Positions 9,253-53,645 of a DNA stretch of 64,000 bases are shown one piece after another. How positions within the stretch are numbered: the stretch's first letter is position 1; the number at the start of each line of letters is the position of its first letter. The stretch is taken from the IMG/VR virus record IMGVR_UViG_3300034170_000100, positions 10,795 through 74,794 of that record; one strand, given 5' to 3'. Below the pieces are notes generated by a model. It was not told where the DNA came from and did no database searches. It saw only the letters and a list, made by a program, of their open reading frames with translations. The DNA comes from a virus. The position numbers were made by a program, and so were the translations under genes.

Positions 9253-11406
9253 ATGGCACAAGATGAACAACAACCGCTGGATACGCTGAACCAGCATAAA
9301 CTGACAGATTGGTCTCACGAACCAACTCTGGCGGAATTAAAGCTCGATGTCGAGAACTCTGCTACTGCGCACAAAACGCAGGTGACGCTAATTGACGGCT
9401 GGCTTGAATATCTACACGCGACTGGTAAAGGTGCGGCGCCGAAGGAGAAGAACAAGTCTCAGGCCCAGCCAAAGCTCATTCGCCAGCAAGCAGAGTGGCG
9501 ATACGCTTCTTTGTCCGAGCCTTTCCTTTCTTCCCCAGACATCTTCGAACTGAAGCCGGTTACCTGGGAAGATCGTAATGCTGCGATGCAGAATGGTCTG
9601 CTGCTCAACAACCAGATGAACACCCGCATCGACAAGCAACACTTGATCGACACGATGGTTCGCTGTGCTGTTGATACCGGCGTGGCCTTCCTGAAGACCG
9701 GTTGGTTGCGTGAAGTCAAGAAGGTGAAGCGCCAGGTACCTCAATACGAGCTGACGCAAAATCCTGAATACTTGCAGATCATGCAGGAACTTGATGCACT
9801 CAAGGCTGAATCGCCGTCGCAGTATTACGAAGTCGATGAAGGTTACCGTCTTGCGCATGAAACCTACGAAACCGATGGCATTCCGTATGCTCCGGTGCAA
9901 GTAGGGTTCATTGAAGAAGAACAGGAAGACGTTATTCAGAACCACCCTACGTTGGAGGTGATTTCACACAAGAACATCATCGTTGACCCAACGTGCAAAG
10001 GTATCCTGGAAAACGCCGGCTTTATCGTGCACAAGTTCCTGACCAGCAAGTCCGAGCTGAAGAAGGACGGTCGTTACAAGAACCTGGACAAAATTGTCAC
10101 TGACAAGGCCCAGCCACTTTCAGAGCCTGACTTTGATGTGGGCGTAAAAGATCGGACGTTCAACTTCGCGGATAAAGCCCGAACCAAGATGGTTGCCTAT
10201 GAGTACTGGGGCTTCCGTGATATTGACGGCTCCGGTGTAGTGAAGCCGTTTGTGGCTACCTGGGTAGGCGACATTCTGATCCGTATGGAAGAAAACCCGT
10301 TCCCAGATGAGAAGCTGCCCTTTGTTGCAATTCCATACCTTCCGGTGTACGAATCGGTATATGGCGAGAGCGATGGCTCGCTGCTGATCGAAAACCAGAA
10401 GACTGTTGGTGCAATCCAGCGTGGCATGATTGACGTGTTCGCCAAGTCTGCCAACGGCCAGACCGGTATTGCAAAGGGCGCCCTCGACGCACCGAACAAG
10501 CGCAAGTTTGTTGAAGGTGGTGACTACGAGTTCAACCCGGGCAACGATCCACGGTCGGCGATCCACATGCACACCTTCCAGGAAATTCCTGTGTCGGCGT
10601 GGCAGATGTTGCAAGCGCAAAACCAGCAAGCTGAAGCAATGACCGGGGTCCAGGCTTTCTCTGCTGGCTTGAGTGGTACGTCTCTGGGCGATACTGCCAC
10701 TGGTGTGCGTGGTGCTCTGGATGCTGCGTCGAAGCGTGAGCTGGGCATTCTGCGGCGTCTCGCTGCCGGTGTAGTGAAGGCCGGCCGCAAGATGATCGCC
10801 ATGAACGCGGCATTCTTGGAAGACAAGGAAGTCATTCGGGTAACCAACGATTCGTTCGTGGACATTCGACGTGACGACCTGGCCGGCAACTTCGACATCA
10901 GCCTGGGTATCTCCACGGCCGAGGAGGACAATGCCAAGGCTCAAGAACTGTCCTTCATGCTGCAAACTGTTGGCCCTAACGTAGGCTGGGAAGTGACGGC
11001 AATCATCCTGGCAGACATTGCACGCTTGCGCAAAATGCCTGACTTGGCCAAGAAGATTGAGGACTATCAGCCGCAACCTGATCCTGTTGCTCAGCAAAAA
11101 GCACAACTGGAACTCGCCTTGTTGCAGGCGCAGATTGTTACCGAACAAGCGCGCGCCGCACAGTTCGGCTCCAATGCTCAACTGCATCAGGTCAAGCAGG
11201 GCACCGAAGTTGCGAAGGCCAACGCACTCAATGCGAACGCCGACAAAACTAACCTCGACTTCTTGGAACAGGAGTCCGGTGTTAAGCAAGAACGCGATAA
11301 GGAGATCATGGACAAACAGCACCAGGGTCAGGCACAGTTGCAGGCAGTTCAATCAGCTATCCGGCAACAAGAAGCAAGTCAGATGAATAAACCTGGCGCT
11401 ACGTAA
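9253..11406 (+). CDS. portal protein (N4 gp59-like)
   Basis: PKLIRQQAEWRYASLSEPFLSS motif, P22-like portal features, Q-rich C-terminal barrel. Confidence 0.93.
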   Translation: MAQDEQQPLDTLNQHKLTDWSHEPTLAELKLDVENSATAHKTQVTLIDGWLEYLHATGKGAAPKEKNKSQAQPKLIRQQAEWRYASLSEPFLSSPDIFELKPVTWEDRNAAMQNGLLLNNQMNTRIDKQHLIDTMVRCAVDTGVAFLKTGWLREVKKVKRQVPQYELTQNPEYLQIMQELDALKAESPSQYYEVDEGYRLAHETYETDGIPYAPVQVGFIEEEQEDVIQNHPTLEVISHKNIIVDPTCKGILENAGFIVHKFLTSKSELKKDGRYKNLDKIVTDKAQPLSEPDFDVGVKDRTFNFADKARTKMVAYEYWGFRDIDGSGVVKPFVATWVGDILIRMEENPFPDEKLPFVAIPYLPVYESVYGESDGSLLIENQKTVGAIQRGMIDVFAKSANGQTGIAKGALDAPNKRKFVEGGDYEFNPGNDPRSAIHMHTFQEIPVSAWQMLQAQNQQAEAMTGVQAFSAGLSGTSLGDTATGVRGALDAASKRELGILRRLAAGVVKAGRKMIAMNAAFLEDKEVIRVTNDSFVDIRRDDLAGNFDISLGISTAEEDNAKAQELSFMLQTVGPNVGWEVTAIILADIARLRKMPDLAKKIEDYQPQPDPVAQQKAQLELALLQAQIVTEQARAAQFGSNAQLHQVKQGTEVAKANALNANADKTNLDFLEQESGVKQERDKEIMDKQHQGQAQLQAVQSAIRQQEASQMNKPGAT

Positions 11407-29901: not shown

Positions 29902-29907
29902 CAAGGA

Positions 29908-49950: not shown

Positions 49951-50273
49951 TTTGCTCCTTTTTCAAAGCAATTGACGCAATTGACGCCATGTTGGGGGCC
50001 ACCCATACCACGGATGACCGTATGGCATTCAACGCAGGAGATGACACAGGCAGTGGTTACCCTTCCTGGTTTTATTGCGAAGATTGGGGCACCATTTTTG
50101 GAATAGCCCAGCGGGGTATCCTCACCGATTTCGATGTACGAAATTTCGGTTGTACCTTGTTCATCCTGCGAAACTACACGAATAGCCGGGCCTAATGCAC
50201 GGGTAAGTGTATCCATGACGCGAGTCTTACCGGAGCCGGTAGGGCCGGAGATTTCAATTTTAATACTGATCAT
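49947..50273 (-). CDS. small protein with a P-loop-like motif and a CxxC...CxxC zinc ribbon
   Basis: GPTGSGKT; CVEC...CVNC. Confidence 0.7.
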   Translation of the reverse strand: MISIKIEISGPTGSGKTRVMDTLTRALGPAIRVVSQDEQGTTEISYIEIGEDTPLGYSKNGAPIFAIKPGRVTTACVISCVECHTVIRGMGGPQHGVNCVNCFEKGAK

Positions 50274-50890
50274 GCTGCGTCCTTCTCACGAATTTTGACC
50301 ATATGCGCTTTGCACACGGCCTTGATGGTTGGAATGTCCGCGTTCACAGGCAGAGTCACAGGAGTTGCCCAGTTCGGATAGAACAGGTCCAGTGCAGCGC
50401 CCAGTTTCACGGTGTCATGTTCAAGCTCCGGCAGTTCCTGCCAGGACATTTCTTCGATCAGCACCCGGTTGGCAAACTCCACCACTACTGGGTCATTTTT
50501 GATCAAGAGGTAGATAGAGTCATGAATCATAGCAACTGGTTTAATGTCGTACCGAAACGGGCTATCGTGCACACGTTTCATGAAAGCCACGGCAGCGCGG
50601 TTATTGAGCAGCCCATATGACTGTCCCATGGCATTACCGGCAGAACGGCCTTCAGCAGCGACTTCTTTAGGTGTACAATCCAGCCCTAGTACAGAACGGC
50701 CTAGCATTGGGGTACGTAAACGTAAACCAAAGGCTACAGTTACGTACCCATCGACTGTTGCTTGTTTTAGGCGGTCCATGATGTATTCAGTGGAGGCTTT
50801 ATACAAATCGTGAAAATTTGCTTCGATGCGCTTGGCTTTATCTTCTGCCCAACCAAGATTCTTCATTAATGTCGCAAAAGTGCCTTGATA
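50270..50890 (-). CDS. polA: family A DNA polymerase, C-terminal segment (from motif B Tyr through motif C)
   Basis: YQGTFATLMKNLG...RSAGNAMGQS...MIHDSIY; the first ATG (50866) lies 8 codons after the conserved Tyr. Confidence 0.9.
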   Translation of the reverse strand, partial: YQGTFATLMKNLGWAEDKAKRIEANFHDLYKASTEYIMDRLKQATVDGYVTVAFGLRLRTPMLGRSVLGLDCTPKEVAAEGRSAGNAMGQSYGLLNNRAAVAFMKRVHDSPFRYDIKPVAMIHDSIYLLIKNDPVVVEFANRVLIEEMSWQELPELEHDTVKLGAALDLFYPNWATPVTLPVNADIPTIKAVCKAHMVKIREKDAA

Positions 50891-50892
50891 AG

Positions 50893-51036
50893 CTAGGTGA
50901 GAGCAAAGGTTGGGGCTTTGCTCTCTTGGCGTTCCTCCTTATAAAGTTTTGCGATGGAGTTAATACGGAACGTGTCATGCTCCGTACTTTCAATTACTTT
51001 GATGCCCTCAATGGGCGTGTTGATTTTTAGCACCAT
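50893..51036 (-). CDS. polA: family A DNA polymerase, 47-codon segment carrying the first part of motif B
   Basis: MVLKINTPIEGIKVIESTEHDTFRINSIAKLYKEERQESKAPTFALT then TAG; AAGGA SD; absent from the ORF track. Confidence 0.85.
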   Translation of the reverse strand: MVLKINTPIEGIKVIESTEHDTFRINSIAKLYKEERQESKAPTFALT

Positions 51037-51604
51037 TTATCCTTGCGCGGGTTACGCGCTGCAAATAGAGAGATTCGTCCAATTCACCTTCCAATCCCAA
51101 CTCTTGTGCTATTTTCCGCACCTTAGTTGATAGAAAGGGTACTTTATATGGGACTCTTGATGTTAGGCTCTGATAAGACTCACCTTCGATGACGGCGTAC
51201 AGACAATCCACAAATTCTTCTTTAGTGAGTCTGGTTGTGTACACACGCAGCCCTTCGCCAATAGCGTGCAGCTTATTTTCTAGCGAGGTGACCCATTCAA
51301 GATTGGTGCGCGCGTTATTACTACGTACCCCATCCTTATGATTAACCTCTGGTTTGTTTTCTGGGTTGGGTATATGCGCAAGTGCTACAAGCCTATGTAC
51401 ATAAAACGATGTGCCTACATTGCCTGCCCACAAGCTAACTTGAGGGTATTGGGTGTCTTTGTGTGGACTTTGACGTAGCACACGCCCCTTACGGGGGTAA
51501 GTCACACCATCCCGTCCTACGATGATGCGATCTATTGACCGCACCACACCACAGTCACTTACTTCGTAAAGTCCCGTGTAATCAGGCACATTGGAGAAGT
51601 TCAT
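51008..51604 (-). mobile_element. NUMOD4-HNH homing endonuclease inserted in the polymerase gene
   Basis: VPDYTGLYEVSDCGVVRS (NUMOD4), VHRLVA, EVNHKDGVRSNNARTNLEW (HNH); overlaps both polymerase halves. Confidence 0.93.
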
Positions 51605-53645
51605 ACAGTTCCTTACCGGTCATTAAATTACCCAGGTACTCTACTTCCTCCGTAGCGTAAAAGCAAACGTCGGTATCACCAACCTTTGCTCGGTAACACA
51701 CGGCATTCTCCGGTGCCGTTTTAATATCTGACATCCGTTCAGGAAAGTATGCAAAAGCGCGTAAGCAGTGCCCATCATAACCGTCGATGTATACTTTCAG
51801 TTTGTTTGGGTCGCGTGTCGTCAAAGCAGAGATGTAATCTTCCAAAGATGCAAAATCTGCGCCTGCAAAGATCCATCCTGGCGGCCCCATGAACAGTTCC
51901 TTGATTAACTTACCGTAAGCGCTACCACTTGGTATATTTTGCATGTTTGGGTCGGAAGACGACAAACGTCCTGAAATTGTGCCGCCCAGGTTGAATACGC
52001 CATGCAAATAGCGCATGCCGTCGGCTTTGAGGATGCCATTCTCGAATGCAGGCATGAATGCCTGAATGATCTTGGTTACCGCTGAATAGTCGATCAATGC
52101 TTGCAGCAATACCACATATGGCTTGGCCGCTTCGTGATCGAGCAACTGCTTGATGATCTTGCCCCCGGTGGCTGGCGCCTTGGTGGGTGTCCGTGCAAGC
52201 ACAGGCAAGTCCATCAGTTCGTACAACAGGCGGGCCAATTGCAATGGCGAGCCTGGGTTGAAGATCGTGTCGCTGAATTTCTCCAGCGGGTGCTGTTTCG
52301 TCTTCAGTTTGGCGTTGGCCGCCTCCATTGCAGATACCTGCAACAGATAGTTCAGCTTGGCCACCATCGGATCACTTTGGATAACGAGCAGGTATTCCTC
52401 CTGCATCTTCTCCAGTTTTTCCTTGGTTTCGGTGACCTTCTTCGGGTCCATTGGCAAGCCCACCAACTCGACGTTGATGATCAGCTTCATGGAATCCTTC
52501 ATCAGGCCGTCGTACAACTCCAGCTGCTGATCCTGCACCACGACAGGCATATGCTTGTCATAGGTGAAGTTCGTGGCCATACAGTCCACTCCGTTGTAAC
52601 GGAGTAGGTTTGGCAGTGGAATTTTGCGGATGTCCTTGATGTCGTCCTCTGCGTAGTTGCCGGTGAACTCCTGGGACTGGTACTTCAAGCCGAGGGTGTT
52701 ACCCGAGCATGAGTTGACCGAAAGGTAGCTGAGGATCTTGGTGCAATCCAGATTGCTACACATGATGTCCAGACCTTCCAGACAGCTCACGTAATCCAGC
52801 GGATCACGCATCCAGAGGTTGTAAATCAGGTGCTTCACGTCAAACGTGGCACTGTGGAACCGCTTGGCGCCGATGTACTTCTTGAGGAAGTCCTTGAGTA
52901 TTTCACGAACCTCGACGTTGTCCTTGCGGTAGTGATAGTTCCCATCTTCGTCCTTTGCGCCCAGATCGTTCAAATCGACAGGGAATGCAATGAAGTCGTG
53001 GTGGGTCCAGGCTAAAGCGAAGGTGGCAATACCACATTCGTCCAGACGCAGGCTGTAGCCCTCGATGTCCATGGCAAGGTGGGGGAACTTGTGCAGTTCC
53101 ATCAGCGCGTTGCGGATTTCGTTCGGGGTCTTGGGGTAGAACTCCGAATGGATGATCTTGTCACCAGGCGGCACGTAGTTGCCCAGCACTTTGCTGCACA
53201 GCGCGTCCAGACCTTGTTCCAAGTGCGCTTGCTTATCCGGTGCGTAGATCAGCACCTGATAGTTCACACCCAGGACCACTTGCATGTGCTCGTAGCCTTT
53301 TACAGCACAGGGCAGCGAGTAGCCCAGGTGAACCTCGGACTTCTTCTGACCGGTGAGGTACTTGAAGTACGTACCATCGGTGCAGTAGATGAACTTGGTG
53401 CCGGTGCGCTCCAAGACGTTCAGCAGGCGAGCGGAATACTCCTTCACCTGTTGCGCGGATACCTTCTTCGCATTTTCATACGAGAGGGTGAAGGCAATGC
53501 AGTCCTCCTTCTTTATCCCTCTGGTTTCCAGCGGAGCGATGTAGTTTTTGTAGATCAAGTTCTGATCGAACGTGTATTGCTTCATGAGCATGGCAACGGG
53601 ATAATTACCGGACTCATTTTTACCGAAAAACAGGTGGTGACGCAT
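51582..53645 (-). CDS. polA: family A DNA polymerase, N-terminal part (3'-5' exonuclease, thumb, motif A)
   Basis: ExoI DIEG, ExoII FDVKHL, ExoIII YNGVD, TISGRLSSSDPNMQNIP, motif A ADFASLE, YDGH. Confidence 0.95.
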   Translation of the reverse strand: MRHHLFFGKNESGNYPVAMLMKQYTFDQNLIYKNYIAPLETRGIKKEDCIAFTLSYENAKKVSAQQVKEYSARLLNVLERTGTKFIYCTDGTYFKYLTGQKKSEVHLGYSLPCAVKGYEHMQVVLGVNYQVLIYAPDKQAHLEQGLDALCSKVLGNYVPPGDKIIHSEFYPKTPNEIRNALMELHKFPHLAMDIEGYSLRLDECGIATFALAWTHHDFIAFPVDLNDLGAKDEDGNYHYRKDNVEVREILKDFLKKYIGAKRFHSATFDVKHLIYNLWMRDPLDYVSCLEGLDIMCSNLDCTKILSYLSVNSCSGNTLGLKYQSQEFTGNYAEDDIKDIRKIPLPNLLRYNGVDCMATNFTYDKHMPVVVQDQQLELYDGLMKDSMKLIINVELVGLPMDPKKVTETKEKLEKMQEEYLLVIQSDPMVAKLNYLLQVSAMEAANAKLKTKQHPLEKFSDTIFNPGSPLQLARLLYELMDLPVLARTPTKAPATGGKIIKQLLDHEAAKPYVVLLQALIDYSAVTKIIQAFMPAFENGILKADGMRYLHGVFNLGGTISGRLSSSDPNMQNIPSGSAYGKLIKELFMGPPGWIFAGADFASLEDYISALTTRDPNKLKVYIDGYDGHCLRAFAYFPERMSDIKTAPENAVCYRAKVGDTDVCFYATEEVEYLGNLMTGKELYELLQCA

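Follow-up and report, generated by a model that had tools for sequence, protein, structure and literature searches.

A candidate homing-endonuclease cassette with a coding gap in the split family A DNA polymerase gene of an N4-like phage

We analysed a 64,000-nucleotide (nt) stretch of viral DNA (the window; positions 10,795 to 74,794 of IMG/VR record IMGVR_UViG_3300034170_000100), in which the gene for a family A DNA polymerase is split by a free-standing gene for an HNH endonuclease and is interrupted again, within polymerase motif B, by five extra nucleotides. The record is 74,794 bp long, has direct terminal repeats and is rated 100% complete. It represents an N4-like (Schitoviridae) virus, and its nearest cultured relative is Pseudomonas phage phCDa (Schitoviridae, Shizishanvirus). 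The phCDa polymerase is intact (877 amino acids (aa)) and was used as the reference for the split gene, whose three segments share 83-91% protein identity with it. All cassette coordinates in the window refer to the minus strand, and the features are collected in Table 1.

The core of part 1 is 91% identical in protein to phCDa residues 1-641 (83% DNA identity for part 1) and matches PF00476 (DNA_pol_A) and, weakly, PF01612 in Pfam. The homology stops at residue 641 (..MSDI), and the C-terminal tail that follows has no counterpart in phCDa. Homology resumes at INSIA, preceded by an N-terminal leader that likewise lacks a phCDa counterpart. The segment from INSIA to TFALT aligns with phCDa residues 649-671, and its last codon, Thr ACC (50898..50896), directly precedes the extra nucleotides; we refer to it as the take-off codon. 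Beyond them, the frame is open from 50890 to 50270 and encodes a product with a Pfam DNA_pol_A match and 88% protein identity to phCDa residues 672-877. Omitting the 5 nt restores the motif B spacing that is canonical for family A polymerases. Parts 1 and 2 constitute the sole polymerase match in the record. The open reading frame (ORF) of the nuclease shares its first 23 nt with the end of part 1 and its last 29 nt with the start of part 2a, so that 118 + 43 = 161 nt of the insert are not covered by it, and a start signal for part 2, AAGGA, lies 3 nt upstream of the ATG at 51036. An initial annotation, made from the sequence, had described the overlap with both polymerase parts, a Shine-Dalgarno signal for part 2, a tail of ~45 aa, a leader of ~20 aa and an AT-rich cassette. 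All of these were borne out, with 46 and 24 aa measured against phCDa for the two extensions, and the compositional shift is modest: the guanine-plus-cytosine (GC) content is 0.470 at 50891-51722, as compared with 0.519 in the part 1 core and 0.526 +/- 0.032 in the window, and ranks in the lowest 6% of stretches of equal size.

Table 1 Features of the polymerase locus in the window and of related loci (window positions unless a locus is named)
Feature	Location	Strand	Remarks
Polymerase part 1 ORF	53645..51582	-	687 aa
Part 1 core: 3'-5' exonuclease and polymerase domain through motif A	51723..53645	-	residues 1-641
C-terminal extension (tail) of part 1	51585..51722	-	46 codons; stop 51584..51582
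Free-standing NUMOD4-HNH homing endonuclease gene	51008..51604	-	198 aa, I-HmuI-like
Part 2a ORF	51036..50893	-	47 aa
N-terminal extension (leader) of part 2	50965..51036	-	24 codons; begins MVLKI at ATG 51036
Polymerase segment INSIA...TFALT	50896..50964	-	first half of motif B including Arg, Lys, Phe
Hairpin	50899..50925	-	10 bp, 7-nt loop; Glu-Ser-Lys and Phe-Ala-Leu codons
5-nt coding gap TAGCT	50891..50895	-	stop TAG 50895..50893; proposed landing triplet GCT 50893..50891
Part 2b, post-gap (YQG...)	50270..50890	-	Tyr of motif B, motif C, C-terminus, stop
Probable imported (co-converted) tract around the cassette	50595..51755	-
TAGCT gap, same Thr codon	L149, L150, L151, L152
TAGCT gap, Thr codon four codons earlier	L099		after KAPT
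TAACT gap	L161, L171		5 nt
6-nt gap	L195		in frame
7-nt gap	L164
40-nt gap	L153:3642-3681
46-nt gap	L154:1426-1471
Tad2-like genes	L144:3599-4336; L153:2500-2979; L163:3029-3508; L157:3008-3505; also L155, L159
Second cassette type	L228:2732-3430; L206, L212, L113, L195		204-aa HNH, 29-39% identical to the window's

The nuclease matches PF07463 (NUMOD4, 1e-9) and PF13392 (HNH_3, 1e-10) in Pfam, and I-HmuI among protein structures (PDB 1U3E, E=4e-11). The catalytic HNH columns H89, N101, N110 and H113 are invariant among its relatives (alignment A3). Since it combines the I-HmuI match with these invariant columns, the nuclease is probably active. Its domains, its similarity and the catalytic His and Asn are those of the I-HmuI-like NUMOD4-HNH class, and a further class feature, location inside a group I intron, was absent from the window and present for the homologue in Acinetobacter phage nACB1. 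This homologue is the closest HNH relative (52-53% identity), and the intron that encodes it is inserted at a distance of 5 nt from the gap site. According to the P1 alignment of Rfam, combined with the reading frame, this insertion probably splits the Leu codon of TFALT behind its first base, on the upstream side of the gap site. The HNH gene is present in a single copy in the genome, and an IMG/VR scan with it returned no match closer than one of 55% identity over a partial alignment. In the nACB1 record, a coding sequence annotated as 'DNA polymerase' on the opposite strand, just after polymerase part 2 (L003:5343-5666), looks like an annotation artefact. Another contig (L218:60-75) departs from the polymerase within motif B, exactly at the position of the nACB1 intron, and enters a lysozyme-like lysis gene; it has no intron signal, is probably a chimeric assembly or a recombination break, and was not used.

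In the window, TAGCT lies between the Thr and Tyr codons of motif B (TFALT/YQG), with ~115 nt between it and the end of the upstream HNH ORF, and its TAG stop overlaps the GCT that precedes the Tyr codon. Since phCDa reads an uninterrupted KAPTFALTYQG without these bases, TAGCT is a true addition of 5 nt. We compared 149 N4-like polymerase loci, gathered by an IMG/VR scan and one metagenome scan and then processed with scripts, and found motif B continuous in 130 of them. The 5-nt insert of the initial annotation is accordingly real, missing as it is from phCDa and the 130 other loci, and a sequencing or assembly error was ruled out because the gap recurs in independent, divergent contigs. The eight codons between the gap and the first ATG (50866) all differ from phCDa at the third position without a single amino-acid change, and the post-gap stretches of L150 and L161 contain neither Met nor another start codon. 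Judging from this substitution pattern and from the lack of a start codon in those two loci, the codons after the gap appear to be translated.

A hairpin of the coding sequence ends immediately ahead of the take-off codon. Its predicted folding energy is -17.8 kcal/mol (z score -3.4), as compared with a z score of -0.5 for the equivalent stretch of the gapless phCDa gene, and pairing at 10/10 positions was found in seven of nine gap-bearing sequences versus 3 of 103 gapless ones. A perfect AAGGAGG, embedded in Lys-Glu-Glu codons (50934-50940, minus strand), precedes the take-off codon by 35 nt. This internal sequence is shared with L149 and L150 but not with every gap-bearing locus, and no start codon follows it. 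The sole tRNA gene in the window encodes a tRNA-Leu with anticodon AAG (29905-29988, minus strand), for which no link to the gap was found.

Gaps of 5, 6, 7, 40 or 46 nt occur in at least 11 other divergent metagenomic contigs. In ten of these contigs, the gap is at the same Thr codon as in the window, and in L099 it lies 12 nt upstream. All of the gaps obey one grammar: they start after ACN, close with ACN or GCT, directly abut a Tyr codon (a Phe codon in L099) and meet a stop at once or within 8 codons. A stop at the gap start and matched take-off and landing codons, as in cassettes of the MobA/gene 60 kind, were found together in the window (ACC, TAG and the overlapping GCT) and in the relatives (ACN/ACN pairs), across six gap sizes. 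In the long gaps of L153 and L154, both of which also contain strong G+C hairpins, the resuming frame has a stop directly ahead of the final Thr codon. Because of this stop, a simple frameshift cannot join the frames; as the sequences read, only a hop onto the last Thr codon would do so. L195 reads Thr codon, TAG, Thr codon, Tyr (L195:1222-1233), making it a candidate for a natural in-frame 'stop-hop'. Between L149 and the window, identity is 65% over the ~1-kb cassette stretch, and the two cannot be aligned elsewhere. L149 was also the only hit of IMG/VR scans that used the gap junction and the hairpin arms as queries. Eight further database proteins of 47-52 aa (P0001-P0008) are part 2a fragments, and the gap types read from such protein ends are TFALT, TFALTR, TFALTL and TFALTRPSPY. 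One protein, P0009, carries an in-frame insert at TFALT/YQG that comprises 15 codons plus a Thr codon (~48 nt) without a stop, and P0010 has a related insert that shifts the frame. The insert is therefore present as initially annotated, but not as a single form: it belongs to a series from 5 to ~48 nt.

The nuclease and the gap occur together. All ten loci with either the window's HNH gene or a close relative of it (58-72% identical) are gapped, and in the gap-bearing L099 and L195 the HNH genes are more distant. The flanks of L153 and L163 are 99.2% identical on both sides, and one replaced block differs between them; in L153, this block contains the HNH gene, the leader, the exon and the 40-nt gap, with identity restarting at the first post-gap base. 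The pair L149 and L228, with flanks of 99.5% and 97% identity, has the same right-hand boundary. Joint inheritance of endonuclease and gap was tested with these two pairs and the association table, and all of them agreed with it; as the alignments read, near-identical phages exchange the nuclease and the gap as a single block. On the left, the HNH block joins part 2 within its first three codons (Met-Leu-Lys; L153:2975-2990 versus L163:3504-3520), which suggests recombination via this short shared sequence. In L153, the inserted HNH ORF uses the start codon of part 2, and the 3' end of the block supplies a new MVLKI start. Taking these boundaries together with the homing site of the nACB1 intron, we consider that the nuclease probably cuts gap-free motif B DNA and that the gap probably protects its carrier. 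A probable imported tract surrounds the cassette in the window itself: at approximately residues 631-770, the third-codon-position identity to phCDa falls to 0.2-0.4 (0.5-0.8 elsewhere) and the GC content to 0.47 (~0.51-0.52 on each side), with the protein identity staying at 0.87-0.97.

Tails homologous to that of the window were found in L149-L154, L161, L144, L157 and L165. Their nonsynonymous divergence (pN) is 0.2-0.46 versus a synonymous divergence (pS) of 0.5-0.9, close to saturation, and the ratio of the corresponding rates (dN/dS) is 0.14-0.68 where computable, indicating purifying selection; by this measure, the tail evolves as protein. The leader is conserved in eight database proteins and many loci. 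Altogether, conservation of tails and leaders extends to more than 15 loci across divergent phages, consistent with a free-standing nuclease gene that divides an ORF into two pieces with conserved extensions. In alignment A4, the tails were misplaced by MAFFT. A predicted complex of part 1 residues 420-687 (alignment A2) with part 2a (A1) scored 0.26 (mark 0.32).

The split is separable from the HNH-plus-gap unit, because split, tail and leader also occur without HNH or gap. In L144, L155, L157, L159 and L163, a Tad2-like gene is at the split, with tail or leader seen, and L156, L158, L160, L162 and L165 keep the split with other small genes or none. The initially proposed picture of a polymerase split by an HNH gene is corrected to that extent. 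The Tad2-like genes (Thoeris anti-defence, PF11195) replace the HNH gene or stand beside it, and their presence in relatives suggests that the split site serves accessory genes as a cargo slot. A second type of cassette, whose HNH gene differs and which has its own tail and leader, occupies another split site (KLKVYT/GYDGH) and is combined with a motif B gap in L195 only. In addition, an unsplit N4-like polymerase of 931 aa (P0026) has a continuous insertion of ~50 aa at residues ~654-703 that resembles a shortened tail plus leader; in its AlphaFold2 model, residues 665-692 have a predicted local distance difference test score (pLDDT) below 50. The insertion may be ancestral, or it may stem from a secondary fusion that followed when the inserted gene was lost. 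Part 1 has additional interruptions near PNLQNIP and the motif A region in L171 (1577-2600, with a 235-aa ORF) and L123 (2017-2224), which may be extra introns or nuclease insertions.

Taken together, these results make it probable, on comparative grounds, that the locus is a homing-endonuclease cassette in an N4-like family A polymerase gene, analogous to the T4 gene 39/mobA/gene 60 element and independent of it, as had been proposed initially, with comparative support for each element of that proposal. Under this model, the nuclease would nick or cut gap-free polymerase alleles at motif B, repair off the cassette-bearing genome would copy in the nuclease gene together with the adjoining exon as far as the gap, and the carrier would be immune because the gap breaks the nuclease target. 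The two polymerase polypeptides would assemble via tail and leader. During translation, with ACC in the P site and a slow UAG in the A site, the peptidyl-tRNA-Thr would disengage, the mRNA would slide by 5 nt and the anticodon would re-pair with GCU through two wobbles and one C-G pair (G.U, C-G, U.G). Tyr-tRNA would then enter at UAU and translation would resume, yielding the canonical TFALTYQG (junction APTFALTYQGTF). The 10-bp hairpin may help this hop. On this reading, the peptidyl-tRNA-Thr probably crosses the gap by hopping. The broader proposition, that a natural series of programmed hops from 5 to ~48 nt, including the candidate in-frame stop-hop, sits at one codon boundary of the polymerase motif and was spread by an I-HmuI-like nuclease as target-site immunity, appears rather likely to us, with somewhat less assurance.

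Several observations weigh against this interpretation. For tRNA-Thr, GCT offers a landing site that is no more than near-cognate, and in published constructs, short hops without assistance have low efficiency. The stop-less in-frame gap of P0009 could simply be translated. The same tail and leader splits without HNH or gap make the split itself independent of this nuclease. Because the cassettes of the gap-bearing loci have a common ancestry, neither the association counts nor the hairpin contrast reflect independent events, and the hairpin contrast is inflated. The divergent low-GC tract of the window extends ~300 nt beyond the gap, unlike in the two near-isogenic pairs. Finally, no cultured phage in the phage collection carries the cassette, and none has the full leader.

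The most direct competitor accepts the cassette but has the short gaps decoded by frameshifting or readthrough, with a shift of -1 or +2 for TAGCT and TAACT and of +1 for the 7-nt gap, and with readthrough of the stop in the 6-nt gap, leaving one or two extra residues at the end of the O helix and a non-canonical motif. The resuming frame is indeed open across the 5-nt and 7-nt gaps, so that a shift ahead of the stop would join the frames, and the P0009 gap is open and in frame. The insertion point is, by analogy with Klenow-type structures, presumably the last O-helix residue, where a small bulge might be tolerated. Nevertheless, a slippery sequence is absent, and at ACC-TAG neither a -1 nor a +1 shift would let tRNA-Thr re-pair. 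In L099, where TAGCT falls between the helix Lys and Phe, the motif spacing would not survive two extra residues. Frameshifting cannot bridge the 40-nt and 46-nt gaps, which have a stop ahead of the last Thr codon in the resuming frame. One rule, from a Thr codon to a Thr-like codon, covers all of the gap sizes. We therefore regard recoding by frameshift or readthrough as unlikely; in the window it predicts an extra Leu-Ala or Ala, and the hop predicts the tryptic peptide APTFALTYQGTFATLMK without inserted residues. It is also possible that nuclease and gap are linked by descent only, the HNH protein being non-homing or cutting elsewhere and the gap being a fixed lesion or a regulatory throttle on polymerase synthesis rather than immunity. 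This would suit the single cassette lineage among the gap-bearing loci and the gapless second cassette type, with its different HNH, in L228, L206, L212 and L113, and Manning and Atkins discuss possible regulatory roles and a pseudogenised MobA for the T4 case. Such a linkage is doubtful indeed in view of the recent exchange between 99% identical genomes with a boundary exactly at the gap, the conserved catalytic columns, the homologous intron-borne enzyme at the same motif, and gap sequences that turn over fast yet keep the design of a stop plus a Thr-like codon.

If the HNH gene lay in a degenerate group I intron or a split intein, the polymerase would be rejoined as RNA or protein. The closest HNH relative is intron-encoded, and 'fractured genes' with split inteins around a nuclease gene are known (PMC2677866). 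However, an Rfam scan at E<=10 found no group I intron (RF00028) in the window, where the insert leaves 161 nt free of the HNH ORF, and the same scan detected RF00028 in nACB1, the positive control, at E=1.5e-8. Together with the selection on the tail as protein, this supports the initial view that no group I intron interrupts the gene at the split. One public run holds the window stretch, a peat metatranscriptome kept as contigs; this sole contig from an RNA library is identical to the DNA and collinear with it, without a joint, which speaks weakly against an intron, though the contig may be the record's source or DNA carry-over and shows neither transcription nor the absence of rare splicing. 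As for an intein, no conserved Cys, Ser or Thr was found as first tail residue (the frequent Cys is replaced by Ala or Pro in L144, L153 and L157), Pfam detected no intein domain, tail plus leader, at 70 aa, are only about half as long as a Hint domain, and the features of split-intein 'fractured genes' were absent. An intron or intein is thus scarcely credible. Finally, the polymerase might be defective or assembled without recoding from three pieces, namely part 1, the 47-aa part 2a and a part 2b initiated at ATG 50866, where gene callers split the gene. This ATG has no Shine-Dalgarno sequence, and initiation there would lose the Tyr of motif B. The eight codons ahead of it are under strong purifying selection, and since post-gap codons are selected and L150 and L161 offer no start at the equivalent place, a three-piece or dead polymerase is very improbable. 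The retention of the design in at least 12 divergent phages, and the fact that the gene is the only polymerase match in a record rated complete, also argue against it.

If the proposed mechanism holds, the combination of nuclease and bypass would be a recurrent solution rather than a T4 oddity, and very short ribosome hops would be possible at levels that sustain a replicative polymerase. Published examples of programmed bypassing in bacteria and phages essentially come down to T4 gene 60 and its homologues, and our literature search found no report of a coding gap in N4-like polymerases. In Vibrio N4-like phages, a polymerase gene split with an HNH gene has been noted and assumed to be intronic (PMC3670811). 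An independent family would offer a natural mutational series on what ribosome hopping needs, differing in the essential gene, the nuclease type, the use of Thr instead of Gly codons and gaps of 5 to ~48 nt. It would also show homing endonucleases protecting their carriers by a coding gap rather than by an intron or intein. In annotation, the output of gene callers for such a polymerase is a set of two or three fragments, or a pseudogene.

The I-HmuI, I-HmuII and I-BasI proteins are intron-encoded HNH nicking endonucleases in the polymerase genes of the Bacillus phages SPO1, SP82 and Bastille. The locus in the window shares with this group the nuclease family (NUMOD4 plus HNH, with the 1U3E match) and the family A polymerase as host, and its nACB1 relative resides in a group I intron within motif B. 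It differs in that the window has no intron, the gene being free-standing in a protein-level split, and in that a coding gap, rather than an intron, interrupts the presumed target. In the Aeh1 nrdA gene split by MobE, a case of 'genes in pieces' (summarised in bioRxiv 10.1101/2022.08.31.505936), an HNH gene likewise divides an ORF into two polypeptides with terminal extensions, which according to that summary reassemble into an active enzyme; unlike the window, the element is described there without a coding gap. Stop-hops between matched codons work in Escherichia coli constructs, with no natural in-frame case known (PMC5009743). In these synthetic stop-hops and in the byps of Magnusiomyces mitochondria, peptidyl-tRNA crosses a stop or a short untranslated block between matched codons, as proposed here, but the former are laboratory constructs and the latter mitochondrial elements (PMC5009743).

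The closest parallel is the T4 element, in which mobA encodes an HNH endonuclease and is associated with a 50-nt translational bypass (Bonocora et al. 2011, as cited in bioRxiv 10.1101/2022.08.31.505936). With the MobA element come extensions at a C-terminus (~44 aa) and an N-terminus, together with a bypass gap that gives protection from MobA, and the bypass cassette has been called unique and confined to T4-like topoisomerase genes (Manning & Atkins 2022, bioRxiv 10.1101/2022.08.31.505936). As in T4, the window has a free-standing HNH gene that splits an essential replication gene, conserved C-terminal (46 aa, versus ~44 aa in T4) and N-terminal extensions, and a downstream gap in a highly conserved motif that begins with a stop or slow codon between matched flanking codons, with nuclease and gap moving as a block. 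The progressive loss seen among MobA elements also has its counterpart here, in lineages that keep the split and the extensions without nuclease and gap, as does secondary fusion, possibly in P0026. The locus is not a MobA element proper, its host gene being the family A polymerase of an N4-like phage, interrupted in motif B, as opposed to the Toprim domain of topoisomerase II in T4-like phages. The nuclease is I-HmuI-like with NUMOD4, the take-off and landing codons are Thr instead of Gly, and the gap, fixed at ~50 nt in T4, is 5 nt in the window and 5, 6, 7, 40, 46 or ~48 nt in its relatives. In the short-gap forms the hairpin lies upstream of the take-off codon, and bypass and cleavage are, for the window, putative processes proposed from sequence comparison.

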